A stretch of DNA of 64,000 nucleotides from GCF_002087085.1 NZ_MWQY01000008.1:62001-126000, one strand, 5' to 3'. Shown: positions 14,298-49,056, counted from the first letter of the stretch. Translations and numbers: made by a program. Notes: generated from the letters alone by a model not told the origin.

Positions 14298-15863
14298 ATG
14301 TATAGACTGATTCTTGTGGATGACGAGGCAATAATTCGCGACGGCATCTCCTCCTGCCTGCCCTGGGAAACGAACGGTTTTATACTGGCGGGGATGTTCG
14401 AACACGGTGTTCAGGCCCTGGATTACCTGAAAAACAACCATGTGGACGTGGTAATCTCGGATATAAACATGCCGCGAATGGACGGTCTGGAGCTGAGCGG
14501 CCACATCTCCCGAACCTTTCCCGAAACCGAGGTGATTATACTTACCGGTTTCGATGATTTCGAATACGCCCAGGAAGCGGTAAAATACCATGTCCGGGAC
14601 TTTCTGCTGAAGCCGATAACCGCCGCAGAGCTGGGAACGGCCCTGGAAAAGGTAAAAAAGGAGCTGGACGAAAAAAAAGCCGCCAGAGCTCTGCAGGAAC
14701 AGATGAAGGAGAAACTCGAGCAGAGCTTTCCCCTGCTGCGGGAGCGTTTTCTCTACCGTCTTGCCTCGGGAAAGCTCGAAACGGAGATCATACAGAGGAG
14801 GAAGGAGTACTTCCAGTGGGAGGATCTTGGCTGCTTTTATCAGGTTCTGATGCTGGAGATCCCCGTATTCTGGAGTGAACTGGAGCGGATCGCCCTCTCC
14901 GAATCCGTCAGATCGGATATAGCCGAATATGATGAAGTTTTTACCGACCAGGAGGAGAACCTCGTCCTGCTTCTTCAGGAAAAGGATGAAGAAGCCATGA
15001 CCTTCAAGACCCGAGAAATTGCCCAGGGTGCGTACAGGGAGGTATCACGGCTTCGGAAGGACCAGATCGCCGCAGGATGCGGTCGTATTGTCAGCTCCCT
15101 AGCGGATCTTCCGGGGGCCTTCGAAGGCGCCCGGAACGCCCTGGATTACTCCAGGGTACTCGGTCTTTCCCAGATAGTATTCATTGACGAGGTACGGAAC
15201 AGAAAAACCATCTCCCCCGAAGGCTTCACCCTGTATTCCGGCAGAATCCTCGATCAGCTCAAGGCCGGGTGCGAGCGGCAGACACGGGAAGCGATGGATG
15301 AACTCTTCCACTATCTGGAAAACCACTATCTGACCATGAACGAGGCGGCATACTATTTTATCCGGCTCCACTCCATTCTGCTCTATTTTCTGCAGGAGAT
15401 GGATCTTTCCCCGGAGGATCAGTCCCTCCTCTCCTATCAGCCGGACTGCTTCCATTCCCTGCGGGATGCCCAGGGCTTCTTCAATCGCATGATCGAGGAG
15501 ATAGAACGCTGTATCCGAAAGCGGCGTCACGAGATGATGCTTTCCCGGGTGGAGAAGGCGAAGAAGATAATCGCCGAGGAGTATACCGATCCGGCTTTTT
15601 CCCTGAGCAGGATGTGTGATCAGCTCTACCTTTCCACCAGCCAGTTCAGCGTGCTCTTCAAGGAGGGGACGGGACAGACCTTTGTGGAATACCTGACCTC
15701 CTTCAGGATCAATGCCGCCAAACAGCTTCTCAAAACCACCGACCTGAAAAGTTACGAGATCGCCGAGCGAACAGGATATACCGACCCCCGGTATTTTTCC
15801 CTCCTGTTCAAGAAAAACACGAACATGACCCCCATGGAATACCGGAAGAGTCTTGAACAATGA
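14298..15863 (+). CDS. YesN-type response regulator (REC plus AraC)
   Basis: LVDDE, SDINMPRMDG, FLLKP; C-terminal AraC HTH. Confidence 0.92.
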   Translation: MYRLILVDDEAIIRDGISSCLPWETNGFILAGMFEHGVQALDYLKNNHVDVVISDINMPRMDGLELSGHISRTFPETEVIILTGFDDFEYAQEAVKYHVRDFLLKPITAAELGTALEKVKKELDEKKAARALQEQMKEKLEQSFPLLRERFLYRLASGKLETEIIQRRKEYFQWEDLGCFYQVLMLEIPVFWSELERIALSESVRSDIAEYDEVFTDQEENLVLLLQEKDEEAMTFKTREIAQGAYREVSRLRKDQIAAGCGRIVSSLADLPGAFEGARNALDYSRVLGLSQIVFIDEVRNRKTISPEGFTLYSGRILDQLKAGCERQTREAMDELFHYLENHYLTMNEAAYYFIRLHSILLYFLQEMDLSPEDQSLLSYQPDCFHSLRDAQGFFNRMIEEIERCIRKRRHEMMLSRVEKAKKIIAEEYTDPAFSLSRMCDQLYLSTSQFSVLFKEGTGQTFVEYLTSFRINAAKQLLKTTDLKSYEIAERTGYTDPRYFSLLFKKNTNMTPMEYRKSLEQ

Positions 15864-17644
15864 GACGATTTATCAGCTTCGGTACCCTGGGTTCCCGCAT
15901 ATATATCACCTTTACGGTAATGATCTTCGCCACCATCTTTATCATGCAGCTGGTTGCCTTCCGCTTTACCCTGACCACAGTTCGTAACTCGACCCTGGAA
16001 ACAAATCAGGCCATGCTGGGGCAGCTCACCCGGCAGATAGACTCTTACATCCAGGGGATGGAAAAGATCGCTTCGGCGGTTCTGGAGAATCCTGAACTTC
16101 AGCGTCTGCTGGAGGGAGATGGGATCGAAGGAGACCGCAGCGCAGTGGAGACAATGCTGGCTCATTATATACAGGCCCGGGACGACATCTCTGAAATACT
16201 CATTTTTCCCCCCGGGGGTTCCGTTATATCCAGCGATCCGGATATGGAGATAAACCCCTGGACTGACTATACCCTCCGCCCCTGGTATGTAAAGGCCCTT
16301 GCCGCCGAAGGAAAAACCGTTGTATCCGGTTCCTACGTCCAGAATCTGGTCAGGGGACAGTACTCCTGGGTGGTTTCCCTGAGCCGGCAGATCAATACCA
16401 GACACAGGGCAAGCACCCCCGGAATACTCCTTGTAGACCTCAAGTTCAACAGGATACAGGAGCTGTGCCAGTCCATGGTTATCGGCAAGAAAGGATACAA
16501 CTTCGTTATAGACGAGCAGGGAAATTACGTCTTCCACCCGACCCAGCAGCTGGTCTACAGCGACCTGAAAAACGAACCCATCGACCGGATAATAAACCTG
16601 GTCGAAGACAGTGAACGCATAACCTACAGTGACGGGGAACGCTACTTCATGGTGGACACATCTCCCCTTACCGGCTGGCACATGGTGAGCGTCCTCAGAT
16701 CCGACGACATCATCACCGAATGGCGGAACGTTCAGGCCGGTTACGCCATAATAGGACTTGTACTCTTTCTTATCGTAGGAATCGCCACCAACACCGTCAC
16801 CCTGGGAATTACCAAGCCTATCAGGCAGCTGCAGGAAACCATGAAGAGCGTCGATACAGGAGATTTTCAGCTGGTCGGCCGTATCAGGGCAACGGATGAA
16901 ATCCAGGAGCTTGCCCGGGAGTACGACATAATGGTAACAAGAATCCGGGAACTGATGCAGGAGAACATTCAGGAGCAGGAGCTCAAACGGAAGAGCGACC
17001 TGAAGGCCCTGCAGGCCCAGATAAATCCCCACTTTCTCTACAATACCCTGGATTCAATCATCTGGATGGGAGAAATGCAGCAGAATTCAGCGGTGGTTCT
17101 CATGACCTCCGCCCTGGCACGACTCTTCCGCATCAGCATCAGCAAGGGACGGGAGCTGATCTCCATAAAGGACGAAATAGACCATGTACAATCCTATCTG
17201 ACCATCGAGGAGATGCGCTATCGGAACAAATTCGACTACGTGATCGATGTGGACCCCGGCCTCTACGAGTTCGAGATACTGAAGATAACCCTTCAGCCCC
17301 TGGTGGAAAACGCCATATACCACGGCATCAAGGAGATTGATGAAAAGGGCCGCATAAGCATCCGGGGCAGAAAGGAGGACGAGACAATCGTGTTTACCGT
17401 CCAGGATAACGGCAGAGGTATGGCACCGGAGCAGCTCCGGCTTCTGAACTCGGCCCTGCAGCACCCCTTCATGGAGCAGGGGCGTCATGCCCGGGGCGGC
17501 ATGGGGGTGGGAATCCGGAATGTACACGCCCGGCTCAGGCTCTACTTCGGTGAGGATTTCGGTATCTCCTGCAGAAGCCGCCGCGGAGAGGGAACCACGA
17601 TAACAATTGTTTTCCCGGCGAGAAAAGGAGAGTCCACGGTATGA
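15860..17644 (+). CDS. YesM/LytS-type sensor histidine kinase (Cache-HAMP)
   Basis: LQAQINPHFLYNTL, LQPLVENAIYHG, DNGRG, GVGIRNV. Confidence 0.93.
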   Translation: MRRFISFGTLGSRIYITFTVMIFATIFIMQLVAFRFTLTTVRNSTLETNQAMLGQLTRQIDSYIQGMEKIASAVLENPELQRLLEGDGIEGDRSAVETMLAHYIQARDDISEILIFPPGGSVISSDPDMEINPWTDYTLRPWYVKALAAEGKTVVSGSYVQNLVRGQYSWVVSLSRQINTRHRASTPGILLVDLKFNRIQELCQSMVIGKKGYNFVIDEQGNYVFHPTQQLVYSDLKNEPIDRIINLVEDSERITYSDGERYFMVDTSPLTGWHMVSVLRSDDIITEWRNVQAGYAIIGLVLFLIVGIATNTVTLGITKPIRQLQETMKSVDTGDFQLVGRIRATDEIQELAREYDIMVTRIRELMQENIQEQELKRKSDLKALQAQINPHFLYNTLDSIIWMGEMQQNSAVVLMTSALARLFRISISKGRELISIKDEIDHVQSYLTIEEMRYRNKFDYVIDVDPGLYEFEILKITLQPLVENAIYHGIKEIDEKGRISIRGRKEDETIVFTVQDNGRGMAPEQLRLLNSALQHPFMEQGRHARGGMGVGIRNVHARLRLYFGEDFGISCRSRRGEGTTITIVFPARKGESTV

Positions 17645-18639
17645 AAAAATGGTTCGTTCCCCTCCTCAGCCTGATGGCGGCGCTTGTTCTGTTCATGACC
17701 TTTTCCCTCTTCTTCGACCAGAACATCCCGGAATTGCCGAAACTGGAAAAGCCCGTTCAGATAATCATGAAATCCCGGGAACGGAAACCCATGGACTTCT
17801 GGGAGGTCGCCACCCGGGGAATAGTCGAAGCCGCCCGGGAGTACGGCCTGGAATACGAAATAAGCGGACCCCACTTCGAAAAGGAGATAGACCTCCAGAT
17901 CGAGATCGTCAATAAAATCATCGAACAGCGCCCTCCGCTTATCCTGCTGGCAGCCACTGATTACAAGCGCCTGGTCCCCTCCGTTGAGCGGGCCAGCGAG
18001 CTCGGTATACCCGTAATCACCTTCGACTCCGCTGTGGATTCCACCATCCCCGTCTCCTTTGTCGCCACCGACAACATCGAAGCGGGGGAAAAGGCCGGCA
18101 GGGAGATGAAAAGACTCATAGCTCCGCGGACCAGAAAGGAGATCGCCATCGTCAGCCATATCAAGGAGACCGCTACGGCCATTGACCGGGAAGCGGGGGT
18201 AAGAAATGCCCTGGAGGGGGAAACCATAATCGGAACCTGGTTTATCGATGTGGAGCAGGAAAAAGCCTACAGGACAACCCTGGAACTTCTGAAAAACAGC
18301 AAGCTGGGAGGCATCGTCGCCCTGAACGAAGCCGCGGCTCTGGGCGTCGGGGATGCGATCGCGGAGAAGGGAGCGCAGGACGAGGTACTGGTGGTGGGCT
18401 TTGACAATGCCACGCAGGAGCTTGCCTATCTTGAAGCGGGAGTCATTGACGCCCTGGTGGTCCAGAGACCCTACAATATGGGCTACATGTCGGTAAAAAG
18501 CGCGGCGGAATTCCTTCTTGGAAATCCGATTCCTTCCTTTATAGATACCGGATCCATCCTGATAACCAGGGAAAACATGTTCAGCAGGGAATACCAGGAG
18601 CTCCTCTTTCCCGTTCAGAACGCGGGGCATCCGGAATAA
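17641..18639 (+). CDS. RbsB-like sugar-binding protein (likely sensory partner of the kinase)
   Basis: N-terminal TM anchor, IPVITFDS, VATDN, VVGFD; overlaps the kinase stop. Confidence 0.85.
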   Translation: MKKWFVPLLSLMAALVLFMTFSLFFDQNIPELPKLEKPVQIIMKSRERKPMDFWEVATRGIVEAAREYGLEYEISGPHFEKEIDLQIEIVNKIIEQRPPLILLAATDYKRLVPSVERASELGIPVITFDSAVDSTIPVSFVATDNIEAGEKAGREMKRLIAPRTRKEIAIVSHIKETATAIDREAGVRNALEGETIIGTWFIDVEQEKAYRTTLELLKNSKLGGIVALNEAAALGVGDAIAEKGAQDEVLVVGFDNATQELAYLEAGVIDALVVQRPYNMGYMSVKSAAEFLLGNPIPSFIDTGSILITRENMFSREYQELLFPVQNAGHPE

Positions 18640-18732
18640 CCGGAATATATTCAACATAGTCCGTAAAATTCTCGATTTCGCGATCCCGGAAACGCTGTGA
18701 CAATTGTCATACGATTCCAAGGAGCGCGAGTT

Positions 18733-20235
18733 TTGAAAAAAGAACCAATCCTGTCAATGAAAAATATCGACAAGCGATTTGCAGGAGTCCATGCCCTCAA
18801 GGGGGTGGATTTTGACCTCTACGCGGGAGAGGTACACGCTCTTGTGGGTGAAAACGGAGCCGGAAAATCCACCATGATGAAGGTGCTTACGGGTATTCAT
18901 CCGAAGGATTCCGGTGAGATTTTCTACATGGGGCAGCTCTTCAATCCTTCCGACCCGAAACACGCCCTGGAAATGGGAATCGGGATAATCCATCAGGAAC
19001 TGAACATGATGGACCATCTTACGGTTGCCCAGAACATCTTTATAGGACGGGAATCCACAAAGGGCCGGGGATTGTTCCTGAGCGAGAAAGACCAGAACCG
19101 GCGCACCGAGGAGCTCTTCCGGCACCTGAACATGAAGATTGACCCCACCGAACGCCTGGGAAACCTGACCGTAGGCAAGCAGCAGATGGTGGAAATCGTC
19201 AGGGCAGTATCCCACGACCTGAAGGTCCTGATTCTCGACGAACCGACAGCGGCCCTCACCAACGCGGAAATCGACGAGCTCTTCAGCATTATGCGGGATC
19301 TGGCCTCCCGGGGGGTGGGAATGATCTACATTTCCCACCGCATGGACGAAATCGCCCGCATAACCGACCGGGTAACAGTACTCCGGGACGGTGAATACGT
19401 GGGCACCCGAAATACCACGGAGACCAGCAAGGAAGAGATCATCAACATGATGGTCGGACGGGTCATCTACGAGGAGCCGAAGCAGAAGAGCAACGTGCCG
19501 CAGGATGCCGAGGTTGTGCTCAGGGTACGGGACCTGAACTCCGGCAGGATGGTCAGGAACGTCAGCTTTGAGCTGCGCAGGGGAGAGATCCTCGGTTTCG
19601 CCGGACTCATGGGAGCAGGCAGGACTGAAACAGCCCGGGCCATCTTCGGTGCAGACAGCATCGACAGCGGTATTATCGAAGTCAAGGGGCGGCCGGTAAC
19701 AATACGCTCCCCCATGGACGCGGTCTCCCACGGCATAGGCTACCTTTCGGAGGATCGTAAACGTTACGGCCTCGCCCTAGGTTTGAGCGTGAGCGAAAAC
19801 GCCATACTCCCCACCTATGAATCCTTTGTCAAGAACCTTTTCGTACAGAGCGGCCGGATAGACAGAGTGGTTGGAGAGTACGTGGACAAATTGAACATAA
19901 AAACCCCCTCGTTGGAACAGCTGCTCAAGAACCTCTCCGGAGGGAATCAGCAGAAGGTGGTCATCGCGAAATGGCTTATACGAAACAGCGATATCCTCAT
20001 CTTCGACGAACCGACCCGGGGTATCGATGTCGGGGCCAAGAGCGAAATCTACACCCTTATGAACGAACTGGTTAAGAGCGGGAAGTCCATCATCATGATC
20101 TCTTCGGAACTCCCGGAGATTCTGCGCATGAGCGACCGCATCCTGATCATGTGCGAAGGAAGAAAAACCGGCGAGCTCGATATAAGCGAAGCGAACCAGG
20201 AAGAGATTATGAAATACGCAACCATGCGTAACTGA
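18733..20235 (+). CDS. Sugar ABC transporter ATPase (RbsA/MglA type)
   Basis: GENGAGKST, LSGGNQQK, DEPTRGIDVGAK; TTG start after AAGGAG. Confidence 0.95.
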   Translation: MKKEPILSMKNIDKRFAGVHALKGVDFDLYAGEVHALVGENGAGKSTMMKVLTGIHPKDSGEIFYMGQLFNPSDPKHALEMGIGIIHQELNMMDHLTVAQNIFIGRESTKGRGLFLSEKDQNRRTEELFRHLNMKIDPTERLGNLTVGKQQMVEIVRAVSHDLKVLILDEPTAALTNAEIDELFSIMRDLASRGVGMIYISHRMDEIARITDRVTVLRDGEYVGTRNTTETSKEEIINMMVGRVIYEEPKQKSNVPQDAEVVLRVRDLNSGRMVRNVSFELRRGEILGFAGLMGAGRTETARAIFGADSIDSGIIEVKGRPVTIRSPMDAVSHGIGYLSEDRKRYGLALGLSVSENAILPTYESFVKNLFVQSGRIDRVVGEYVDKLNIKTPSLEQLLKNLSGGNQQKVVIAKWLIRNSDILIFDEPTRGIDVGAKSEIYTLMNELVKSGKSIIMISSELPEILRMSDRILIMCEGRKTGELDISEANQEEIMKYATMRN

Positions 20236-37609: not shown

Positions 37610-37624
37610 TGATAAGTGGACATC

Positions 37625-38866
37625 ATGAATATTGCACTCTCCATAAAGGACAACCTGACAACCAGCGTCCGGGTTTTCACCCGTTTTCACCCCATCTATT
37701 CGGTGCGGGAACACTGCGTTATCGGTATAGAAGCCCTCTCACGGGGATATGCCGGAATTTCAGCGGAAGAGGTTCAGCCGGAGGAGCTCTTCCGACGGGC
37801 CAGGGATAACGGCCGCTTTACCCAGCTGGACCGCCACGCCCTCTGCACAGCGGTTCAGAGCTACGCCTCGCTGCCTGAAGGAAGCTCCGCGGCTCCCCTG
37901 CTGTTCCTGAATATTTCCACTGAAATGATCGAAAGGGGGCTCGATGACATCCGTCTTCTGAATGAGTCGATACTCAAAGCTGGGGTATCCCCCGACCAGG
38001 TTGTCCTGGAGATCATTGAATCCCGGGTCGAGAATATCGACGCTCTCTCGTACTTCGTTCACCATCACCGGGATAGAGGATTTCTGATTGCCCTGGATGA
38101 TGTGGGGGCCGGACATTCCAATCTGGAACGGATATCCCTTCTGAAGCCGGACATCATCAAGATCGACCGCTCCCTGGTCAGCGGTATCTACCGGGGCTAT
38201 CACAAGCAGGAGGTCTGCAAGGCGCTGATCCTGCTGTCCCACCGTATCGGTGCACTGACCATCGCCGAAGGTATCGAAGAGAAGGAGGAAGCCCTTACCT
38301 GTCTGGAGCTGGGTGTTGACATGCTGCAGGGATTCTATTTTTGCCGCCCCCTGAGCCTTGCAGAATACCAGGACTCTGAACACCTGGAAATAAAGGACCT
38401 TGCCGAAACCTACGCCCAGCGTTCCATTGAACGCAAGGAGCAGGAACGTCTGCTGGCGGAAACCCACCGGGCATTGGCGGGCCGCCTGACCGAACGACTT
38501 ATGGCTGCGGACAGGCCTGATTTCACCAGGATTCTGAAAAGTTCTCTCAGGTCCACCCGCTTTGCCCGCTGCGCCTATCTTCTCGATTCCAGGGGACATC
38601 AGATAACCGGAACCATCGTACAGAAGGGATTCACCAAAAAAGAGCACCGGCTTTTCGCCCCGGCACCGGAAGGAACCGACCACTCCCTGAAGAGCTACGT
38701 ACTGCGTCGGGGAGAACTTGATACCTGTTACATAACCGAACCCTACATATCCAAGGCCACGGGGGAGCTCTGTATTACCGCATCCCAGGGCTTCCGCGGT
38801 AAATCGGGGGAGGAGTTCATTCTCTGTATCGACATTGATTACGGCGGCAGCCGGGACCCGAGATAG
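37625..38866 (+). CDS. EAL c-di-GMP phosphodiesterase with C-terminal YkuI_C-like domain
   Basis: EALSR, LFLN, LEIIE, DDVGAG, KIDRS, AEGIE, QGF; YITEPYISKATG. Confidence 0.88.
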   Translation: MNIALSIKDNLTTSVRVFTRFHPIYSVREHCVIGIEALSRGYAGISAEEVQPEELFRRARDNGRFTQLDRHALCTAVQSYASLPEGSSAAPLLFLNISTEMIERGLDDIRLLNESILKAGVSPDQVVLEIIESRVENIDALSYFVHHHRDRGFLIALDDVGAGHSNLERISLLKPDIIKIDRSLVSGIYRGYHKQEVCKALILLSHRIGALTIAEGIEEKEEALTCLELGVDMLQGFYFCRPLSLAEYQDSEHLEIKDLAETYAQRSIERKEQERLLAETHRALAGRLTERLMAADRPDFTRILKSSLRSTRFARCAYLLDSRGHQITGTIVQKGFTKKEHRLFAPAPEGTDHSLKSYVLRRGELDTCYITEPYISKATGELCITASQGFRGKSGEEFILCIDIDYGGSRDPR

Positions 38867-38937: not shown

Positions 38938-39804
38938 ATGGACCGGGAAATACAAAGCCGAATTCTGGCGATGCAGAAAAACGAGATAACCGAATACCAT
39001 ATCTATACCAGACTGGCGAAGATGCTGGAAAAAACCGAAAACGGACCGATTCTCAGGACCATAGGCGAGGAAGAGAAGAAGCACCATGACTTTCTGAGCA
39101 AATTCACCGGAAAAAGTGCCCGGCCGAAGGGTTTCAAGGTAGTTTTTTTTGTTCTGATCGCCCGCATTCTGGGGATTACCTTCGCCCTGAAACTGATGGA
39201 ACGGGGAGAAGAGGAGGCCCAGGAGATCTACGACGCCATGAGCCGCCAGGTTCCCGAGGCAAAGCAGATCATTGAAGATGAAGACGCCCACGAGGAGAAA
39301 CTCCTGCAGATGCTCAAGGAGGAGCGTCTCGAATATGTGGGCTCCATCGTGCTGGGACTCAACGATGCCCTGGTCGAGTTGACCGGAGCCCTGGCGGGAC
39401 TCTCCTTTGCTCTGCAGAATACCCGGCTCATCGCCGTGGCCGGACTTATTACCGGAATCGCCGCCTCTTTTTCCATGGCAGCTTCGGAATACCTTTCCAA
39501 CCGCACCGAAGGAAACAGCGAGGGAGCAGTAAAATCCGCTGTCTATACGGGAATTGCCTACATTCTGACGGTGGGGCTCCTGATTCTCCCCTATCTGCTC
39601 TTCAGCCACTACATGGTCTGCCTTGCCGCAACCCTGGGTATCGCGATTTTTATTATCTTCTTTTTCAACTACTATGTCGCCGTTGCAAAGGACCTGAAAT
39701 TCTGGCCCCGTTTTACCGAGATGGCCCTCCTGAGTCTCGGAGTCGCGGCGATCTCCTTCGGAATCGGCGTTCTTGTGCGAAGTACCATCGGAATCGATAT
39801 TTAA
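38938..39804 (+). CDS. Rubrerythrin-like plus VIT1/CCC1 membrane protein (MbfA-like)
   Basis: EEEKKH and EDEDAH ExxH motifs; VLGLNDALVE, SMAASEYLS. Confidence 0.88.
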   Translation: MDREIQSRILAMQKNEITEYHIYTRLAKMLEKTENGPILRTIGEEEKKHHDFLSKFTGKSARPKGFKVVFFVLIARILGITFALKLMERGEEEAQEIYDAMSRQVPEAKQIIEDEDAHEEKLLQMLKEERLEYVGSIVLGLNDALVELTGALAGLSFALQNTRLIAVAGLITGIAASFSMAASEYLSNRTEGNSEGAVKSAVYTGIAYILTVGLLILPYLLFSHYMVCLAATLGIAIFIIFFFNYYVAVAKDLKFWPRFTEMALLSLGVAAISFGIGVLVRSTIGIDI

Positions 39805-40475: not shown

Positions 40476-40678
40476 AGTGGGAGGACATGACTCCGGAAGA
40501 ACGGGACCGTTTTATCTACCTCTCCCTGAGCGAAAACGCCCTCAAGGCGATCGTCATGATCATGCAGCGCAAGCATGGTCCCGATGTTTCGACGGAGACG
40601 ATTATGCGATATGCCTTTAAAATAGCCCGGGACCGCATGACGCCGAAGCATCTGAAGAAGAAATCCGGAAAAGCTTAA
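40469..40678 (+). CDS. Small hypothetical protein
   Basis: Coding-like 69-aa ORF overlapping the HAD stop; start uncertain (GTG 40469 or a nearby ATG after GGAGG). Confidence 0.6.
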   Translation: MVEWEDMTPEERDRFIYLSLSENALKAIVMIMQRKHGPDVSTETIMRYAFKIARDRMTPKHLKKKSGKA

Positions 40679-41784
40679 GCACCGGCAAACGGAGGCTGTA
40701 ATTCCCTGTCCCGCCAGGGACGGTGACGCAGGCTCAGACTGTCATCCTCACCACCGGTCTCTTCCAGCCCCGCAATCTCCGGGAGAATAAGGTCGGTCTC
40801 CTGAGCGGTGATTACCGGAAGGTCATAACAGGTGTTCCGGTGTTTTAGCTCACCCTTTCTTGTTCTGTATTCTTCAACAAAGCCGAGGTGTTCCTTCATG
40901 CGCCGCCGGTTGATGCTGTGGGCGATTTTCCCGGGGGAACACTGTTCGCGGAGGGAAGTAGCAGCCGATTCCGCGAGAACGGGATCTATCTCCGTACCAA
41001 TAGAAGAGCGGCCCGCGGCAGCGGCGGCCAGGGCCGTGGTCCCCGTCCCCAGGAAGGGGTCGGCCACCAGGTCCCCCTGCACCGAATACATGCAGATCAG
41101 GCGGTATGCCAGTTCGAAGGGATAGGCCCCGCTCCTCTCCCGGGCAGCCCTCCCCTTCAGGAGCTGACGTTCCCCGGCAAGGTCCCAGAGATCGGAAAAC
41201 CAGCGGTTCCGCTCCTCCCAGAAGTAGGCACTGCGCCGGCGAAGGGCCTTCTGATCCCCCGTAAATACCCGTTTTCCCCCTTTACGGAAGATAAGGATGT
41301 GCTCATGCTCCAGGGTCACATAGGCTCCCGCCGGAAGCATTCCGGAACCCATGAACTTGTTCGGTGCGTTGGTACTCTTGCGCCAGATAATACGGGGCAG
41401 TACGGAAAATCCCAGATTCGAGAAAGCCGTCACTATACGCTCGGCGTTCGGGTAGAGCATAAAGGTTCCGTCCACAGTCCTGAGGGCGTCTCCCACATTG
41501 ATGCAGACAATCCCCCCGGGCATTACCAGAGGCGCCATGATCGCCCAGACCCGGTCAAGCACATCATGCATGGCACGAAAGGCCTTCCAGCCCTGATTCC
41601 CGGAGAGAAGCTCCCTGATACGTCCGTCCTGGAGGGAAAAGGTCTCATCCCACATGGAGATCATCGGGTAAGGCGGAGAGCTGAGCACGAGGGCAAGGCT
41701 GTCGGGATTCAGGGAACTCAGGACAGAAGCATCCTTCGGCAGAATCCTGTGCCGGGTAGTAAATTCCAGGGGAGCATCTTCCAC
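40675..41784 (-). CDS. Beta-class N4-cytosine DNA methyltransferase, M.MthZI-like, orphan
   Basis: SPPY before DPFLGTGTT; KFMGSGMLP.AYVT.EHE.ILIFRK and AYFWEERN.WFSD as recalled for MthZI. Confidence 0.88.
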   Translation of the reverse strand: MEDAPLEFTTRHRILPKDASVLSSLNPDSLALVLSSPPYPMISMWDETFSLQDGRIRELLSGNQGWKAFRAMHDVLDRVWAIMAPLVMPGGIVCINVGDALRTVDGTFMLYPNAERIVTAFSNLGFSVLPRIIWRKSTNAPNKFMGSGMLPAGAYVTLEHEHILIFRKGGKRVFTGDQKALRRRSAYFWEERNRWFSDLWDLAGERQLLKGRAARERSGAYPFELAYRLICMYSVQGDLVADPFLGTGTTALAAAAAGRSSIGTEIDPVLAESAATSLREQCSPGKIAHSINRRRMKEHLGFVEEYRTRKGELKHRNTCYDLPVITAQETDLILPEIAGLEETGGEDDSLSLRHRPWRDRELQPPFAGA

Positions 41785-41830: not shown

Positions 41831-41860
41831 TTGTCCTTTATTGTCACGTATTGTACACTA
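41831..41860 (+). repeat. Three tandem 10-bp direct repeats overlapping a promoter
   Basis: TTGTCCTTTA-TTGTCACGTA-TTGTACACTA; contains TTGTCC-17-TACACT. Confidence 0.7.
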
Positions 41861-41865
41861 TTTAT

Positions 41866-42564
41866 ATGAAAAGGACAGAAGATTCCTTAATGACCCTCAG
41901 TGAAATGGCTGAGTATCTTCAGGTGGCGGAAAAAACGGTCATGCGCATGATCAACCGCAAAGAGATTCCCGCGATAAAAATCGGCAGCCAGTGGCGCTTT
42001 TCCCGATCCATGGTGGACGACTGGATTATCTCCAACATGCAGGTAGTCCCCCGCAATGATCTGGCAAAACTGATGGAGGACAGCCACGATCTGGTACCCC
42101 TCTCACGGCTGGTGGATACGGGATCCATTATCATGAACCTCAAACCTGGAACCAGGCGGGAGGTGCTGGCCCAGCTGATCCGCCCCCTCGAAGCGATGGA
42201 GAAGATCACCGATTCGGCGGCATACCTGGACATACTTCTGGCCAGGGAGGAGATGATGACCACCGCCATCGGTCCCATCGCTTTTCCCCATGCCAGGAAT
42301 CCCCGGGAAAACGAAGGAGCAGAACCCCAGGTCATTGTCGGAATCTGCCGGGAAGGAACGCAATTCGGTTCCCTGGACGGGAGCCCTACCTACCTGTTCA
42401 TGCTCCCCTTTACCGACAGCGAGATCATTCATCTGAGGCTGATGGCCAAGATGGCTGTCCTTTTCAAGGAAGAAAAGAACGTTCGCAGGGTGCTTGAAGC
42501 TAAAAGCGGCGAACACGTTGTGGGCGTACTGATCTCTCTGGAACAGCAGCACCGTAGTGAATAG
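41866..42564 (+). CDS. HTH_17 (BldC/Xis-like) plus PTS EIIA(Ntr/Fru) fusion
   Basis: MTLSEMAEYLQV..IPAIKIGSQWRF; AREEMMTTAIG.IAFPHAR, FGSLDG, HLRLMA. Confidence 0.88.
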   Translation: MKRTEDSLMTLSEMAEYLQVAEKTVMRMINRKEIPAIKIGSQWRFSRSMVDDWIISNMQVVPRNDLAKLMEDSHDLVPLSRLVDTGSIIMNLKPGTRREVLAQLIRPLEAMEKITDSAAYLDILLAREEMMTTAIGPIAFPHARNPRENEGAEPQVIVGICREGTQFGSLDGSPTYLFMLPFTDSEIIHLRLMAKMAVLFKEEKNVRRVLEAKSGEHVVGVLISLEQQHRSE

Positions 42565-42584
42565 AAAATAAGGAGGCGTCCGAA

Positions 42585-43400
42585 ATGACCCTAAGCAGAC
42601 ACCTGAAGCCGGAATGCATATCGATTATCGACCCGCCGGAGAACAAGGATCAGTTACTCAGAAAAATAGCCGCCCTGAGCGGTAACACCGAAGAACTCTC
42701 CTCCATCGGGGAAGAGGAAATTTATCAGAAGCTTAAAAAACGTGAAGAACAGGGAAGCACAGCCTTCGGCTCCGGAATTGCGGTTCCCCACTGCAGTTTC
42801 AAGGGTCTCGAATCCTTCGTGCTGGGACTCCTGATTCTGAAAGGAAAAGGGACATCCTTCGATGCCCCGGATAAAAAACCGGTAAATCTCTGCTTTTTCA
42901 TAATCGGCCCCGAGGAAGCGCGGAACGAACACATCCAGATCCTCTCCGGAATCACCCGTCTGCTGAATACCACGGAAGCGGCAAAACAGCTGCGCCAGGC
43001 GCGCTGGCCCGATGATGCCTATTCCATTCTGGTTGGTTCGATTGAGCTCGGCAGGGCGGCAAGCGCGCAGGTTCCCGCCTCCCAGATAAGCGTTGCAGTT
43101 CAGGACGAATCAGCCTTCATCGATATCCTGGAACTCTTTACCGCGGAACCGGACTGTCACATCGCCGTTTTTGAAGGTACCAGTGCGGGCAGATACCTCC
43201 ATCACCTGCCCCTCTTTTCCTCGTTCTGGACGGATGAGCAGAATACCGAGGTAAAGCTGATTCAGGCAGTATTGAAGACCAGTGCCTGCAACAACATGAT
43301 TCGCCGGATCAACACCATCCGGGACACCTCCAAACCCGATTCGGGGGTACTGATCAGCGTTAACGAGCTCTCCTACTGGTGCGGCAGTCTCTCCTACTAG
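42585..43400 (+). CDS. PTS EIIA domain plus C-terminal PII-like domain
   Basis: REEQGSTAFGSGIAVPHC, FDAPDKKPV, HIQILS; ~105-aa C-terminal ferredoxin-like pattern (PII-like call is inference). Confidence 0.8.
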   Translation: MTLSRHLKPECISIIDPPENKDQLLRKIAALSGNTEELSSIGEEEIYQKLKKREEQGSTAFGSGIAVPHCSFKGLESFVLGLLILKGKGTSFDAPDKKPVNLCFFIIGPEEARNEHIQILSGITRLLNTTEAAKQLRQARWPDDAYSILVGSIELGRAASAQVPASQISVAVQDESAFIDILELFTAEPDCHIAVFEGTSAGRYLHHLPLFSSFWTDEQNTEVKLIQAVLKTSACNNMIRRINTIRDTSKPDSGVLISVNELSYWCGSLSY

Positions 43401-43410
43401 GCAGGTGCAT

Positions 43411-44655
43411 ATGGACAATCTACAACTACCCATCCTGGTCGTAGCCGGGATAATAGCATACCTTTCGCTGTACGCCGGAAAGCTCGCAAACAGGATAAAA
43501 CTCCCCTCTCTTATCGGTTTCATGTTCGTGGGCGTATTCCTTGGCCCCTCCCTGGCAGGACTCCTGAGCTCAGAAATACAGGACTCCATGCAGTTTATTA
43601 CCAAAATTGCCCTGGGTTTCGTGGCCCTCTCCATCGGAATGGAACTCCATATCAGGGAACTCAGGCGCCAGGGACCGGGAATCATGCTGGTTATTCTGAC
43701 CGAGTCCTTCGGAGCTTTTCTGGTGGTAGGCCTCGCGGTCTTTCTTTTGACCGGCGACCCTGCACTGGCTCTGATATTCGGCGGCATTGCTCCGGCTTCC
43801 GCACCGGCGGGAACCGTAGCCATTATACAGGAGTACCGCGCCCGCGGCCCTCTTACCAAAGCGCTCTACACAGTCGTCGGTTTTGATGACGGACTGGGAA
43901 TCATAATCTTCGGCTTTGCCTTTGCCGTAGCCAAGGCCATAATATCCAGCCGTACAGGACTTGAAACCATGACCCTCTCGGCGGCGGTAATCAGCCCCTT
44001 GAGGGAGATCGGCCTCAGCATACTGGTTGGTCTGGTAATGGTCCTGGTCTATACCCTTCTGTCCAGGCCCCTTGATTCAGCACGGGACCGGTTTATTCTG
44101 ACAATAGCCACGGTGCTGTTTACCACCGGGCTCTGCGAGTATTTTCACCTCTCCGAAATTCTTACCAACATGATTGTCGGTATGGCCTTTACCAATACCC
44201 AGCCCACAAAAACGACCCGGGAAATAGACGAAAGTCTCAGGGGCATCATGCCGCTGCTCTTTCTCTTTTTCTTCACCCTCGCCGGAGCAAATCTGCATGT
44301 AGGAGCCCTGCCCTCCCTGGGGCTGCTGGGTCTGGTTTACATAGCAGCACGCACCGCAGGGCTGATGGGAGGCGCCTGGTTCGGTACGACCATCGGAAGG
44401 ATGGAGGAAAACCTGCGGAAATATCTGGGGATGGGCATCCTTTCTCAGGCAGGGGTCGCCATCGGTCTGTCCCTGGTGGTCAAGCAGGACCTGTCCGAGA
44501 TGGGAGGCCCGGGAGTACAGCTGGGTGCCATGGTAATAACCTCGATTACCGCCACCTGTATTTTCTTCGAGATAATCGGCCCCATTTTGACCAAGATAGG
44601 CCTTACAAAGGCGGGGGAGATATCCCTGCCCGATTCCGGCGAACAGGTACCCTAA
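43411..44655 (+). CDS. Cation:proton antiporter (CPA2-like)
   Basis: About 12 TMs, ASAPAGT, GFDD, FFTLAG, SQAGVAIGL. Confidence 0.9.
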   Translation: MDNLQLPILVVAGIIAYLSLYAGKLANRIKLPSLIGFMFVGVFLGPSLAGLLSSEIQDSMQFITKIALGFVALSIGMELHIRELRRQGPGIMLVILTESFGAFLVVGLAVFLLTGDPALALIFGGIAPASAPAGTVAIIQEYRARGPLTKALYTVVGFDDGLGIIIFGFAFAVAKAIISSRTGLETMTLSAAVISPLREIGLSILVGLVMVLVYTLLSRPLDSARDRFILTIATVLFTTGLCEYFHLSEILTNMIVGMAFTNTQPTKTTREIDESLRGIMPLLFLFFFTLAGANLHVGALPSLGLLGLVYIAARTAGLMGGAWFGTTIGRMEENLRKYLGMGILSQAGVAIGLSLVVKQDLSEMGGPGVQLGAMVITSITATCIFFEIIGPILTKIGLTKAGEISLPDSGEQVP

Positions 44656-46889
44656 ACCAGCTCCCGGTCAAAGTTGAAGGTCGTGGTGGAGGATTCTCCG
44701 GGTTCGGCGTTCAGGTAGTCAAAGCAGTCCGCGGTTCCTGGTACCCCAGGCACCTCCATGGCCTGGGCAGGGTAAAGAACGGTGAGCCCGGCCTCATCGG
44801 CTTCGCTTACCCGGAACTGTCCCCCCCGGCTGTCGCTTATGGGACCGGAGACTGGAATCCGGGCGCGGGTAATCAGAAGGGGCGGGCGGCCGTAGCGGTA
44901 CACTTCTACAACAAGCGGAGAGGCATCCCGCAGGGCCTCAATGGCCGGCCTCTCCAGTTCAAGCCAGGCCTGAATCCTGCGGACACCCCGCTGGTAAAGT
45001 TCCTCCGCTGCCAGGGCGTTTGCCACCGGCAGGGGATACGCCGCCGTCAGGGTAAGACTTTCCGATGTCAGTTCCTCGAGCAGGGACAGCTGATAGAGGG
45101 AGCTAATCCGGAAACGGCGGCAGCCCGCTTCGAGGGCGGAACCAAGCTGCTGTTTCAGCATATCCAGGTCCTCCTCTGAACAGAAACCCGGCAGTACATA
45201 CTCATGTTCCGGAAACCAGGGGGCCCCGTTCAGCGGCCGAGCGACAACGGCGGCCCGGACTCCTGCGGTAACAGCCTTCCCGCCCTTCTTAATAATCACC
45301 GGCTGGAGTTCCTGCTCCGTAAAATTCCCCGTTTTTCCGGAGGACCGCCGGAAATATCCCGACGGACCGTCCTCTTCAGGTTCCGGGGACAGATCCCCTT
45401 CAAACCAGGACCAGAAATCCCGTCGCAGCTGTTTTAACCTGGCGGCGGGAACAAAGGGGTTTCCCTCAACAGAAACCCGGCAGAGGGCAGCACCGACAGC
45501 GGGATTGCGGCTCCGGCGGAACTCCTCCTCAACCTTCTCCCTGTCCAGGGGATGCCTCAGGGCTTCATCGAATTCTTCAGAGCTCTCCCAGGTCCGTCCG
45601 TCCGCGAAGACCCGGATGCCCCGCCTGGAAAGGTGAATCTCCAGATCAAAGCGCCTGACCGGCTGATAAAGGGGGAGGCCTGCACCGTCGAAATTCACCC
45701 CTTTTACGCTGGACCCGACACGGTAGACCCGCCCGGAGGCGGGGACCTCCCGGTCATAGGGAATAAAGACCTCCCTGCCTTCCGTTGCGGTGGAAACCGG
45801 GTGTTTGCCGTCCCGCATGGCGGTTACGGTAAAGGAGGGTCCCTCGTCGCCGGAGGCAGGCTGTATTCGCAGCCGGTCCCCCAGGCGCAGCCTTCGGGAA
45901 ACCTTCAGGGCAAAGCCGCCTTTTCCGGCACTTGCCACAGTCCCCACCAGCTGACCGGAAACCCCCAGGGAATCGTACTGGACCAGCTCCGCCATATCCT
46001 TCTCCGTGGCAAAACCGTGGGACCAGCGACGCCCATAGGATGACGAAAGAATCTTGCGGGCCTCTCCCAGGACCTGGCCGCGGGAGCCGGAAGGAGCGTC
46101 CAGCACCATTCTGTAGGCCTGCACAACCTTGAAGACATAGTCCGGCTGTTTTAAGCGCCCTTCAATCTTCAGGGATTTGACCCCCGCCTGCTGAAGATCA
46201 TCAATCATGTCCAGGGTGTAGAGGTCCTGGGTAGAGAAAAAGAAGCCGCTTTTGGGGCTGCCCTCTTCGGTGCCGTGAAAACGGCGGCGGCAGGGCTGTT
46301 TGCAGCGCCCCCGGTTGCCGCTCCAGCCTCCCATCCAGGAGGAGAAAAGGCAGTTTCCGGAGAGGGAACAGCAGAGGGCCCCGTGGATAAAGACCTCTAT
46401 ATCCAGAGGCGACGCCGGGACCATCCTCTTGAGTTCCCGGAGGGTAATCTGCCGTTCAAGGATTACCCGGGATATTCCCATCCTTGCCGCTTCGAGTATG
46501 CCCGGGGAGTTGTGAATTCCCATCTGGGTCGATGCGTGAAGCTCCAGCTGAGGATACCGGGTCCGGAGAAATCTGGCCACGCCGATATCCTGAAGGATAA
46601 CGGCATCGGGATCCAGCCTTGCAATCTTCTGCACGGTTTCGTCGAAGGCCTCCCACTCAGTCTCTTTGACCAGGGTGTTCAGGGTAAGGTAAAAACGTTT
46701 CCCCAGGGTCTTGGCCTTCTGCGAGAGGCGGGAAAGGTCGTCGTAGCTGAAGTTGGTGCCCATCTCACGGGCATTAAAGCGGCCGACGCCGCAGTAGACG
46801 GCATCAGCCCCGGCGGCATAGGCGGCGAGGGCCGTGCTCAGGGTACCCGCCGGGGCAAGCAGTTCAGGTAAGTTTGTGGAATTCTTCAT
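44652..46889 (-). CDS. U32-family protein (RlhA-like RNA hydroxylation)
   Basis: ELLAPAG, HASTQ, HGALC.S.SG.C..S....NRGRCKQPCR, LKIEGR. Confidence 0.88.
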   Translation of the reverse strand: MKNSTNLPELLAPAGTLSTALAAYAAGADAVYCGVGRFNAREMGTNFSYDDLSRLSQKAKTLGKRFYLTLNTLVKETEWEAFDETVQKIARLDPDAVILQDIGVARFLRTRYPQLELHASTQMGIHNSPGILEAARMGISRVILERQITLRELKRMVPASPLDIEVFIHGALCCSLSGNCLFSSWMGGWSGNRGRCKQPCRRRFHGTEEGSPKSGFFFSTQDLYTLDMIDDLQQAGVKSLKIEGRLKQPDYVFKVVQAYRMVLDAPSGSRGQVLGEARKILSSSYGRRWSHGFATEKDMAELVQYDSLGVSGQLVGTVASAGKGGFALKVSRRLRLGDRLRIQPASGDEGPSFTVTAMRDGKHPVSTATEGREVFIPYDREVPASGRVYRVGSSVKGVNFDGAGLPLYQPVRRFDLEIHLSRRGIRVFADGRTWESSEEFDEALRHPLDREKVEEEFRRSRNPAVGAALCRVSVEGNPFVPAARLKQLRRDFWSWFEGDLSPEPEEDGPSGYFRRSSGKTGNFTEQELQPVIIKKGGKAVTAGVRAAVVARPLNGAPWFPEHEYVLPGFCSEEDLDMLKQQLGSALEAGCRRFRISSLYQLSLLEELTSESLTLTAAYPLPVANALAAEELYQRGVRRIQAWLELERPAIEALRDASPLVVEVYRYGRPPLLITRARIPVSGPISDSRGGQFRVSEADEAGLTVLYPAQAMEVPGVPGTADCFDYLNAEPGESSTTTFNFDRELV

Positions 46890-47288: not shown

Positions 47289-47433
47289 CGTATTTCTCCT
47301 TGTCCGTATCAGAATCTCAGGCAAATAGTGCCCTATAAATAATAGCACCTCCCGGGGGTGGATGTAAAAGGAAGTGGAGGAAATCTTTCATCTTTGCTTG
47401 AAATACGCTCCCCCAAATTCTATAATTCCTCCA

Positions 47434-49056
47434 ATGAGAGCCTTCCACAGGTATGTGCACCGTTTCCTTTTCACCATAACCTCCGCGGCAGTGATACTTT
47501 TTCTAGCCTTTGGCCTGTTTCTGTTCTACGACAGATCGACACGGATAAATTCCGACACCCTCCGGGACGAACTGGGCTTTATCAATGTCCTTATCCGAAG
47601 CGTTCATGATCATGCCAGACTGGGAAATCGGGAATCCCTGGAAGCGATGAACAAGGCGGCGGAAGAGGCGCGCCGGGCACTGCCGCCGCGGTTCTTTGAC
47701 AGCGGCACTGAGACCTTCCTCCACCAGCTTGCGGACTCCCCCAGCGAAGAGGAACTGCGGGCGGCGGTTACGGAACTCGGCGGTATTGCCCGCAGGATCA
47801 GCGCCTCCTACTACGAGAACCGCGAACAGAGCAGGCTAGTATTCATCGGCTTCGGCCTTTCCATGATGGTGCTTGTGGGAATACTCCTGGCCCTGGCCCT
47901 GCGCTTTCACCTGGAACACACCCGCTATGTAGGAAGAGGCGCGAAGCTTCTGGAATCCCTGGAGAGGATACTGAATTTTGAGTCCGAGAACATCGACTTC
48001 AGCCCCCGATGGCTGGAAGAAGAGGAACTCCTGAGACAGGTAGAGGGGATAGCCGCGGCCCACCGTTCCAACAGGGAGCTTGCCGAACACAGGGTCTACG
48101 GAACCCTGGAGGCTTTTATTCCCCGCATGCGGGAGATCCTCTCCCACAGCGTCCCCTGCGACCGCCTGGCCGTCGCCTTTGTGGACACCGCCGGACATGT
48201 CATCGCGGAATCCGCCTCCAGCGTACTGCCCGTAACCCATCTTGAGCCGGGCTTTATCGAAGAGCTGAAGGATACCAGCCTGGGATCGATTCTGACCAGC
48301 AGGAAAACCCGTATAATCAACGATCTTCCCCGGCACTACGAAGAGATACACCAGTCCGAATCTACTAAACTTATCCTGGAGGAAGGAATCAGGGCCAGCA
48401 TCACGGTACCTATCGAGATCCAGGAGATTATGGCCGAAACCACCCGGGCCTTTGTTTCTCTAATGGAGCGCAAGGACAACGAGACCTCCCTGCATATTAT
48501 CAGGATGTCCCGTTATTCCTACATCCTGGCCCGGGAGCTGGCGAAGAGCGATTCATCCATTACTCCCATGATGCTGCGGGAGATCCTCTGGTTCGCCCCC
48601 CTCCACGACATAGGCAAGATCGGGATACCCGACAGGGTCCTGCAGAAAAACGGTCCCCTCGACGGCAGAGAGAGGTCGCTTATCGAGGACCATGTCAATA
48701 TAGGCCTTTCGGTCATTCACAGCATGAACTCAGGGGTAAACAGGATCATAGACCTGGAACTCCTGAATACCGCGGAAAACATCATAGCCAGCCATCATGA
48801 ACGCTTCGACGGCACCGGGTATCCCAGGGGACTCGCAGGCAAGGATATTCCCGTCTCCGGACGTATCGTCGCCCTGGCGGACGTTTTTGATGCCCTCACC
48901 TCAAAACGGCCGTACAAGGAGGCCTTTTCCATCGATAAGTCCATGGGAATCATCGAGGCGGGCCTGGGCAGCCATTTCGATCCCGACGTATACGCGGCCT
49001 TCCTGAAGGCCCTGCCGGAAATCCGCCTTGTGTATGACAGATACAAGGAGATTTAA
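47434..49056 (+). CDS. Membrane HD-GYP phosphodiesterase with partial GAF domain
   Basis: Two TMs; PLHDIGKIG, HHERFDGTGYP, ADVFDALTSKRPYK. Confidence 0.9.
   Translation: MRAFHRYVHRFLFTITSAAVILFLAFGLFLFYDRSTRINSDTLRDELGFINVLIRSVHDHARLGNRESLEAMNKAAEEARRALPPRFFDSGTETFLHQLADSPSEEELRAAVTELGGIARRISASYYENREQSRLVFIGFGLSMMVLVGILLALALRFHLEHTRYVGRGAKLLESLERILNFESENIDFSPRWLEEEELLRQVEGIAAAHRSNRELAEHRVYGTLEAFIPRMREILSHSVPCDRLAVAFVDTAGHVIAESASSVLPVTHLEPGFIEELKDTSLGSILTSRKTRIINDLPRHYEEIHQSESTKLILEEGIRASITVPIEIQEIMAETTRAFVSLMERKDNETSLHIIRMSRYSYILARELAKSDSSITPMMLREILWFAPLHDIGKIGIPDRVLQKNGPLDGRERSLIEDHVNIGLSVIHSMNSGVNRIIDLELLNTAENIIASHHERFDGTGYPRGLAGKDIPVSGRIVALADVFDALTSKRPYKEAFSIDKSMGIIEAGLGSHFDPDVYAAFLKALPEIRLVYDRYKEI

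Follow-up and report, generated by a model that had tools for sequence, protein, structure and literature searches.

A predicted EIIA–PII-like protein conserved beside a membrane-only cation/proton antiporter in a marine spirochaete

We analysed a 64,000-nucleotide (nt) stretch of the 4.2-Mb genome of a marine spirochaete (GCF_002087085.1, NZ_MWQY01000008.1:62001-126000), referred to below as the window, in which positions are counted from the first letter. It holds a cluster of three genes, g1, g2 and g3, which encode a helix-turn-helix (HTH) protein with an EIIA domain of the phosphotransferase system (PTS), a second EIIA protein extended by a C-terminal domain of predicted PII-like fold, and a membrane-only antiporter. 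That the cluster is a conserved module is well supported; the mechanism that we propose for it, in which the g2 protein would gate the antiporter, is drawn by analogy with known systems. Lengths are in amino acids (aa).

41851-42564, + strand: g1, 237 aa counted from TTG, HTH_17-EIIA protein
42585-43400, + strand: g2, 271 aa, EIIA domain followed by a predicted PII-like domain
43405-44655, + strand: g3, 416 aa, membrane-only Na_H_Exchanger protein

A first-pass annotation of the window had described three co-oriented, tightly spaced genes, and the list of open reading frames (ORFs) bears this out, with all three on the + strand and gaps of 20 nt (g1/g2) and 4 nt (g2/g3). A strong AAGGAGG lies upstream of g2. 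The start that had been given for the cluster, 41831, falls 20 nt 5′ of the longest g1 ORF. Parts of g1, g2 and g3 are matched at 99% or more by RNA-library contigs of three studies on sediment, and one of these contigs spans the g1/g2 junction; being short, gapped and without level, strand or transcript ends, and possibly DNA carry-over, the contigs give a weak hint of expression.

Both EIIA domains, and the HTH domain that precedes the first of them, are readily recognised in Pfam.

41887-42030, + strand: HTH_17 domain of g1, residues 13-60 (Pfam E 1.6e-16)
42112-42528, + strand: PTS_EIIA_2 domain of g1, residues 88-226 (Pfam E 1e-20)
42289-42291, + strand: phospho-His147 of g1, in an IAFPH motif
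residues 7-149 of g2, + strand: PTS_EIIA_2 domain (Pfam E 9.5e-24)
42789-42791, + strand: His69 of g2, the phospho-His, in an IAVPH motif; the second His is His116

The g1 protein scores above the cut-off with HTH_17 (PF12728; 60.8 bits, cut-off 27), with the excisionase model TIGR01764 (54.7 against 28.8) and with PTS_EIIA_2 (PF00359; 74.6 bits, cut-off 27), the last of which also recognises g2 at 84.4 bits. The first-pass annotation was thus right to read the first gene as an N-terminal HTH_17 fused to an EIIA domain. It had also held that the phospho-His is kept in both EIIA domains, which the two motifs and the alignments confirm: in g1, the phospho-His and second His (134 and 181 counted from Met14) are invariant among 15 aligned sequences, the orthologues keeping the HTH as well, and in g2, His69 is invariant and His116 at least 90% conserved among 101 sequences. 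Sequence matches of g2 in the PDB are PtsN structures (3urr, 2a0j and 4gqx, E ~3e-15) and end by residue 151. Against the PtsN equivalog TIGR01419 (cut-off 138.7) g1 reaches 49 bits and g2 79.1, and g2 reaches 61.5 against 221 required by NF008145; in NCBIfam as a whole, both domains lie nearest to PtsN and FruA-type models, far under their cut-offs. Judged by these scores, the EIIA domains of g1 and g2 are PtsN-like and not PtsN orthologues.

The rest of g2 gave no match in Pfam at E <= 1, and its classification comes from predicted structure.

43062-43397, + strand: predicted PII-like domain of g2, residues 160-271, 112 aa
43194-43229, + strand: β2-β3 loop motif YLHHLPLFSSFW, residues 204-215 (Y204-W215), the equivalent of the PII T-loop

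A model of full-length g2 made from 16 sequences had a predicted local distance difference test score (pLDDT) of 82.7, and a model of the domain alone, made from 121 sequences, had a pLDDT of 90.5 and a predicted template modelling score (pTM) of 0.82. The latter follows a β-α-β-β-α-β order with a long β2-β3 loop (strand 6-13, helix 16-28, strand 33-40, two-short-helix loop 42-55, strand 63-72, helix 73-86 and strand 96-103), and this modelled topology is that of PII. Foldseek matches in the PDB were led by canonical PII/GlnK proteins at a probability of 1.00 (4usi, E 3.5e-5; 2gw8, TM 0.62/0.69; GlnK in the AmtB complex 2ns1), with NIF3, CutA1 and S10-like ribosomal proteins mixed into the list. 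A wide VIA fold search, which is independent of Foldseek, returned the DUF3240 structure 3ce8 (Z 10.5, root-mean-square deviation 2.9, 87 residues aligned), 3m05 (Z 9.8), SbtB 6mm2 and CPII 5d4l (both Z 9.1) and TM0021 (Z 8.8). The best-conserved segment of the domain is the β2-β3 loop, which is modelled as two short helices at lower pLDDT: among 101 sequences P209 is invariant, and L205, L210, F211 and W215 are conserved at 90% or more. In alignments read by eye, the α2-β4 loop reads DTSKPDSGV and keeps a single Gly; no B-loop of the canonical GDGK type was seen by eye in the domain alignment.

At the sequence level, the domain profile matches a stand-alone 112-aa protein of the same genome (E 7e-7), which in turn matches Pfam P-II (PF00543) over residues 5-103 with E 0.0017 and 19.1 bits, under the cut-off of 25; the corresponding domain of a second fused paralogue matches P-II at E 0.034. 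The tie of the g2 domain to P-II by sequence is therefore weak and transitive, running through the split paralogue. In a protein atlas the best matches were 'hypothetical protein' clusters (0.84-0.86), and a cluster with 29% P-II members ranked 11 at 0.82; all are below 0.9 and serve as leads only. Because a PII-type fold match goes together with a weak sequence-level tie, we call the domain, as modelled, divergent PII-like and not a PII protein. The first-pass annotation had proposed a PII/GlnB-like domain of ~105 aa; the PII-like fold stands in the model and in both fold searches, the length is 112 aa, and homology to canonical PII proteins was not borne out by profile comparison with hhalign.

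The third gene is a transporter reduced to its membrane domain.

residues 20-388 of 416 of g3, + strand: Na_H_Exchanger domain (PF00999, E 3.2e-30, 105.7 bits against a cut-off of 26.2)
43885-43890, + strand: D161-D162 motif of g3, invariant in 76 sequences

No second domain (RCK, KTN or CorC) was found in Pfam, and the protein stops 28 residues past PF00999. At least 2853 homologues were found at E <= 1e-20, and their source names are cation:proton antiporter or KefB-type. A single-sequence search of PDB sequences gave nothing at E <= 0.01, and the family profile found PaNhaP (4cza, E 4e-8), MjNhaP1 and plant NHX7/SOS1. D161-D162 aligns with the Asn-Asp of PaNhaP 4cza; an Asp-Asp pair is the signature of the electrogenic CPA2 family and Asn-Asp that of CPA1. 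By sequence, g3 is a bare CPA-superfamily antiporter whose ion site carries a DD motif. Calling it CPA2-like, as the first-pass annotation did, is reasonable given the invariant DD motif; the family call is tentative, with the nearest solved sequences being NhaP types of CPA1.

The domain of g2 is present in 15 of 401 Spirochaetota genomes, the host included. At all 13 type-A Spirochaetota loci outside the host genome, a g3 orthologue (49-58% identity) lies directly 3′ of g2, and at 10 of them a g1 orthologue lies directly 5′; one of the remaining three (L031) ends at a contig edge and the other two (L034 and L035) lack the gene. Two further Spirochaetota loci, one of them in the host genome, have the reversed order of antiporter and then EIIA-PII-like gene. 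Relatives include a g2 protein from an uncultured Spirochaetaceae metagenome-assembled genome (MAG) with 92% identity (L001) and a protein of Marispirochaeta sp. with 88% identity to g3 (P0168).

The pairing extends well beyond these genomes. Scanning metagenomes with two domain motifs yielded 136 relatives that were confirmed, and the analysis kept the best 80 loci. EIIA was fused to the domain at every testable locus (76/76), a g3 relative followed within 200 nt on the same strand at 71 of 74, and an HTH gene of the g1 type stood upstream at 31 of 56; after collapsing at 90% identity or more, the counts became 45/45, 41/44 and 16/29. The three loci that missed g3 were L118, where the match starts farther off, L133, where a type I methylase gene comes next, and L156. 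Loci without g1 had unrelated genes upstream (tRNA synthetases, aldose epimerase, HypF and others), and twice another antiporter. Gene-neighbourhood conservation, which the first-pass annotation had named as a check on its proposal, is thus upheld for g2-g3 in 13/13 Spirochaetota and 71/74 metagenome loci. The g2-g3 pair is the conserved core of the module, and g1 is a frequent accessory that is dispensable. Some g2-g3 loci, among them L151:1222-2994 and L144:880-2118, carry an extra antiporter gene just 5′ of g2, in one case with a CBS domain, and L151 has yet another antiporter 3′ of g3.

Among proteins, a word-indexed search recovered 15 full-length relatives of g2, and an exhaustive phmmer search with residues 160-271 recovered 209 representatives of 50% identity clusters at E <= 1e-3, 89 of them at E <= 1e-10. 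Of the 150 phmmer matches listed, 113 are 252-281 aa long with the domain at the C-terminus, and most of the shorter ones look like fragments. A metagenome protein of 432 aa (P0045) has an N-terminal response-regulator receiver, giving the order REC, EIIA and PII-like domain. A 693-aa protein (P0134) that came up as a long family member is an MBG/fn3 repeat protein and was rejected as a spurious match. No fusion to an antiporter turned up among longer g2 fusions of 476-2000 aa, which is weak evidence; the sole longer-fusion match was P0290 (739 aa, metagenome), an arginyl-tRNA synthetase with a PTS EIIA domain in the precomputed Pfam list.

The host genome contains two more modules of this kind. 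On contig C2 (L045:6542-8619, - strand), the stop codon of a 416-aa antiporter gene overlaps by 1 nt the start of a gene for a 275-aa EIIA-PII-like protein; the two products are 31% identical to g3 and 29% identical to g2, and no HTH-EIIA gene was found near the pair. On contig C19 (~14503-19314; L077:2004-6815) the two domains are split between a gene for a PII-like protein of 112 aa and a gene for an EIIA protein of 154 aa, followed by genes for MrpE, MrpF, MrpG, an MbhE-like protein, MnhB, a 4L-type protein and Proton_antipo_M, all of them abutting or overlapping; the pair thus stands at the head of an Mrp-type Na+/H+ antiporter operon. The PLF..F loop motif and the C-terminal Gly are invariant across the three modules. 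That the two domains are joined in one module and lie in neighbouring genes in another speaks for a joint function of EIIA and the PII-like domain, and the presence of the pair next to antiporters of two unrelated families speaks for antiport as its target.

Phosphoryl donors for the EIIA domains are present in this host. Its genome has ten EIIA_2, four HPr-like and four EI-like matches (one a 758-aa GAF-EI protein of the PtsP type), besides three canonical PII matches, and since HPr-like and EI-like matches are present, a regulatory PTS branch is available. Other EIIA genes are found in settings of their own. At L019:1300-2802 (contig C1) a 501-aa protein combines a PTS EIIA domain (69-206) with a diadenylate cyclase domain, DAC (370-496), and adjoins two genes of the chromate-transporter family; the fusion suggests PTS control of cyclic di-AMP (c-di-AMP) synthesis. 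At L015:229-1920 (contig C8) genes for V-type ATPase subunit D and a universal stress protein are immediately followed by a stand-alone EIIA gene.

Upstream of g1, and overlapping its possible start codons (TTG 41851, ATG 41866 and ATG 41890), lies an array of short repeats.

41831-41877, + strand: hexamer array with 10-bp spacing, candidate operator of g1
within it, + strand, read from the sequence: TTGTCC at 41831, TTGTCA at 41841, TTGTAC at 41851, a weak TTTATA at 41861 and AGGACA at 41872

At orthologous loci, T[AG]G[AT]CA units stand at -61, -51, -41, -31 and -21 from a conserved Met. Over the 75 nt 5′ of the gene, mean self-match at 12 loci reached 42% (lag 10) and 43% (lag 20); the remaining lags gave 26-33%, and a control region lying 125-200 nt upstream gave 24% at lag 10. 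Locus by locus, the lag-10 z-scores were 1.3-3.4, except at L038 (0.0), whose repeats lie farther upstream. A three-unit pattern occurred once in the 4.2-Mb genome, where 0.017 occurrences were expected. As lambda Xis illustrates, direct repeats in helical phase fit cooperative binding by an excisionase-type HTH. By this analogy we infer that the phased array is a candidate operator for cooperative binding of g1, and for the HTH_17-EIIA regulators, which are widespread, it would be a first such candidate. A promoter scan upstream of g1 found no sigma-70-like site; a promoter read by hand (TTGTCC, 17 nt, TACACT) matches 8 of 12 positions and was not relied on.

More distant HTH_17-EIIA genes occur away from the g2-g3 pair. 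A locus search with the whole g2 protein found one full-length relative (L001) and 11 other loci that match within query residues 3-150, the EIIA domain; among these 11, L006, L008, L010 and L012 encode HTH-EIIA proteins. The gene is followed by an EIIA gene in L006 and by purE in L008 and L010 (Cloacimonadota), and in a Riflebacteria MAG (L012:4665-8929) it lies directly 5′ of Proton_antipo_M, NADHdh and 4L-type genes, a complex-I-like membrane module. An alignment of the g2 C-terminal domain found no match in the genomes of these four loci, an empty answer that says little there. In design, g1 resembles regulators of the MtlR/LicR/LevR class, DNA-binding proteins whose activity depends on phosphorylation of an EIIA-type domain by the PTS. 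Members of that class have PRD domains and other HTH types, whereas g1 is a minimal excisionase-type HTH with an EIIA domain, and unlike them its relatives head other ion-translocating operons (L012).

The reading that we favour, with confidence a little better than even, is that the three genes form a self-contained regulated cation/proton antiporter unit in which g2 gates g3 and g1 tunes transcription. Depending on metabolic state, a PTS relay would phosphorylate His69 in g2 and His147 in g1, and g2 would dock on the cytoplasmic face of g3 and gate antiport. Because g3 is without a cytosolic domain, we propose the PII-like domain as the contact element, a clamp acting in trans in the role of the CorC and RCK domains of YcgO, with the aromatic loop as a possible interface; its action is modelled on the T-loops of GlnK and SbtB, which reach into their transporters. 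Phosphorylation of the attached EIIA domain would set whether the clamp engages, so that, by analogy, gating by contact would be switched by EIIA phosphorylation. In parallel, g1 would bind the phased repeats cooperatively and adjust transcription of g1-g2-g3 to the same signal. The PII-like domain may also take in a small-molecule signal, the modelled fold being the sole pointer to it. Such a unit probably couples the balance of salt and pH to the metabolic state of the cell.

Several points weigh against this picture. Whereas PII proteins form trimers, CPA antiporters form dimers, so that docking in the style of PII would meet a symmetry mismatch. In the VIA search, generic ferredoxin-like folds (EF-G domains and de novo designs) scored Z 8-9, only 1-2 units under the PII-like matches; hhalign, given 103 domain sequences and 20 spirochaete PII proteins, returned a probability of 1.9%, and the domain profile gave chance-level rows against PDB sequences (E >= 0.15). 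The motifs of the metagenome scan came from type-A spirochaete orthologues, which biases the sample to that subtype. The g1 gene is missing at 25 of the 56 testable metagenome loci, which makes it an add-on outside the core, and also at the host's second pair. As for its operator, the three-unit pattern used for genome-wide uniqueness was derived from the site itself, and the repeat unit varies by lineage, with L038 and L042 carrying other units. The start codon of g1 is ambiguous as well, the inner Met position being CTG in L039 and L040. There, translation must begin at an upstream ATG within the array, and the array thus probably covers the 5′ untranslated region and the first codons.

A rather unlikely alternative, which was the proposal of the first-pass annotation, makes the PII-like domain mainly a sensor of a small molecule (an adenine nucleotide, 2-oxoglutarate, c-di-AMP or a cation), on the model of GlnB, SbtB or PstA/DarA, with ligand and EIIA phosphorylation together setting antiport and, in that annotation, its transcription too. 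Its best fold matches are indeed ligand-binding PII and PII-like proteins, the match of the split paralogue to Pfam P-II is near full length for all its weakness, and the EIIA-diadenylate cyclase fusion of the host links the PTS with c-di-AMP signalling. Against it, homology to canonical PII sequences went undetected by hhalign, the Arg that follows β2 (AGRYL in the window) lacks conservation across the family alignment, the GDGK-type B-loop motif was not seen there by eye, and PstA/DarA chains are missing among the fold-search matches listed. The segment that is conserved best is a hydrophobic, aromatic loop, more like a surface for protein contact.

It is less probable still that g1 and g2 act on other targets, such as K+ uptake, sensor kinases or enzymes, in the manner of E. 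coli PtsN, and are merely co-expressed with the antiporter and do not touch it. PtsN does have many unrelated partners (TrkA, KdpD and PhoR), but co-expression sits poorly with a pairing that persists at 71 of 74 testable loci while other neighbours change, and that recurs in two gene orders with stops and starts overlapping or abutting. Each g2 subtype also pairs with its own antiporter subtype, and the split form heads an unrelated antiporter, Mrp.

The genes that flank the cluster bear on a further alternative.

40675-41784, - strand: N6_N4 DNA methylase gene (Pfam), head to head with g1
44652-46889, - strand: U32 peptidase gene (Pfam), convergent with g3

Could g1 belong with the divergent methyltransferase in a methylation-associated defence system? 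The top NCBIfam match of g1 is antiphage_MADS1 (NF047737; E 7.4e-19, 67.7 bits), and the head-to-head arrangement would suit such a link. We consider it very improbable: the score falls short of the 80-bit cut-off, and the match covers the generic HTH alone. Apart from the cluster's own locus (L029), relatives of the methylase and U32 peptidase flanks were found just at L078, a 95%-identical locus among the 80 from metagenomes, and no methylase relative was found at the 15 short Spirochaetota loci besides L029, which reach at most ~300 nt 5′ of g1. By contrast, g1 accompanies g2-g3 at 31 of 56 and 10 of 13 loci. Most remote of all is the idea that g1 and g2 are sugar-PTS EIIA parts of a fructose/mannitol-type transporter encoded elsewhere, for although PTS_EIIA_2 includes sugar EIIA domains and fruA subfamily models match at E 1.8e-19 and 7.3e-14, every sugar-EIIA model stays far under its cut-off, the lone PTS_EIIC match in the genome (contig C65) has EI, HPr and EIIA matches in its own locus, and the genes are syntenic with antiporters. 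The same synteny agrees with the first-pass annotation that this is not sugar transport; its observation that EIIB and EIIC genes are absent holds for EIIC, the one genome-wide match being on that other contig, and EIIB families were not searched.

Also near the cluster are genes whose functions may concern cyclic di-GMP (c-di-GMP) and iron.

37616-38866: EAL-domain protein
38938-39804: rubrerythrin-like/VIT1 fusion
47374-49056: protein with GAF and HD-GYP (HD_5) domains

These may represent c-di-GMP turnover and iron handling, and a tie to the antiporter unit is not evident. No restriction enzyme gene was seen beside the N6_N4 DNA methyltransferase gene (40675-41784).

Returning to the gated antiporter unit, a broader version of it is conceivable, and we hold it as speculation that is on balance doubtful: the EIIA and PII-like pair, fused or split, could be a portable and widespread switch for unrelated antiporters (CPA and Mrp), in which the PLF..FW loop would serve as a clamp or plug gated by EIIA phosphorylation, the PTS would govern ion and pH homeostasis, g1 would add a transcriptional arm, and c-di-AMP may be linked in. 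The pH, Na+ and K+ of the cytoplasm are set by cation/proton antiporters, and to our knowledge their switching after membrane insertion is understood in few cases, namely RCK domains, Kef with glutathione, and PtsN-YcgO. In the present family, a bare antiporter has a dedicated signalling protein of two domains, with a very consistent pairing and 209 clusters, and in the host genome the module recurs three times, beside two unrelated antiporter types. With three small genes, it offers a compact system in which to study the combined action of PTS phosphorylation and a PII-like fold on a transporter. If the broader version is true, ion and pH homeostasis in many uncultured lineages would have the PTS as a general metabolic governor.

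The closest precedent by mechanism is PtsN-YcgO (CvrA) of E. coli, in which unphosphorylated PtsN binds the CorC domain of YcgO and inhibits K+/H+ antiport (PMC11808508; bioRxiv 10.64898/2026.08.14.744764). Common to both systems are a PtsN-type EIIA domain with a phosphorylatable His and a cation/proton antiporter, and for PtsN-YcgO both direct contact and control by phosphorylation are known. YcgO is a CPA1 protein with RCK and CorC domains of its own, where PtsN docks, whereas g3 has no cytosolic domain; and unlike PtsN, the EIIA domain of g2 is fused to a PII-like domain and encoded beside its presumed target. GlnK-AmtB (2ns1) and SbtB-SbtA (6mm2) supply the second likeness, that of a β-α-β-β-α-β protein with a long β2-β3 loop whose gene lies beside a transporter; papers on the SbtB-SbtA complex are cited in the reference list of PMC10710835. 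The fold matches of the g2 domain include chains of GlnK and SbtB, and sequence homology to canonical PII is undetected. The g2 loop carries a different, aromatic motif and its domain is fused to EIIA, and where GlnK and SbtB act on a trimeric channel and symporter, g2 is paired with a cation/proton antiporter that is expected to be dimeric.

Separate soluble regulators of membrane-only CPA2 antiporters are found in KhtT-KhtU of B. subtilis and in KefF-KefC and KefG-KefB of E. coli. These systems share with g2-g3 a bare antiporter and an adjacent gene for a cytoplasmic regulatory subunit; that subunit is RCK-type and binds c-di-AMP in KhtT, is quinone-oxidoreductase-like in KefF and KefG, and consists instead of EIIA and a predicted PII-like domain in g2. 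The Kef ancillary proteins are described in PMC11808508. Streptococcal LacS, in which the transporter carries a fused EIIA(Glc)-like domain and phosphorylation by HPr tunes transport (PMC10710835), likewise dedicates a PTS EIIA domain to one non-PTS transporter. Unlike g2, that domain is of the Glc type, is part of the transporter itself and serves sugar rather than ion transport. Literature searches, which largely did not cover subscription journals, turned up no account of an EIIA-PII-like fusion or the three-gene module. The first-pass annotation had gone further in knowing of no characterised example of its combination, which is too strong, given that direct inhibition of YcgO by unphosphorylated PtsN is published (PMC11808508). 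Each ingredient has a known counterpart, in PtsN-YcgO, in the PII-like regulators of transporters and in the detached Kef and Kht regulators, and the combination found here is a variant of them.

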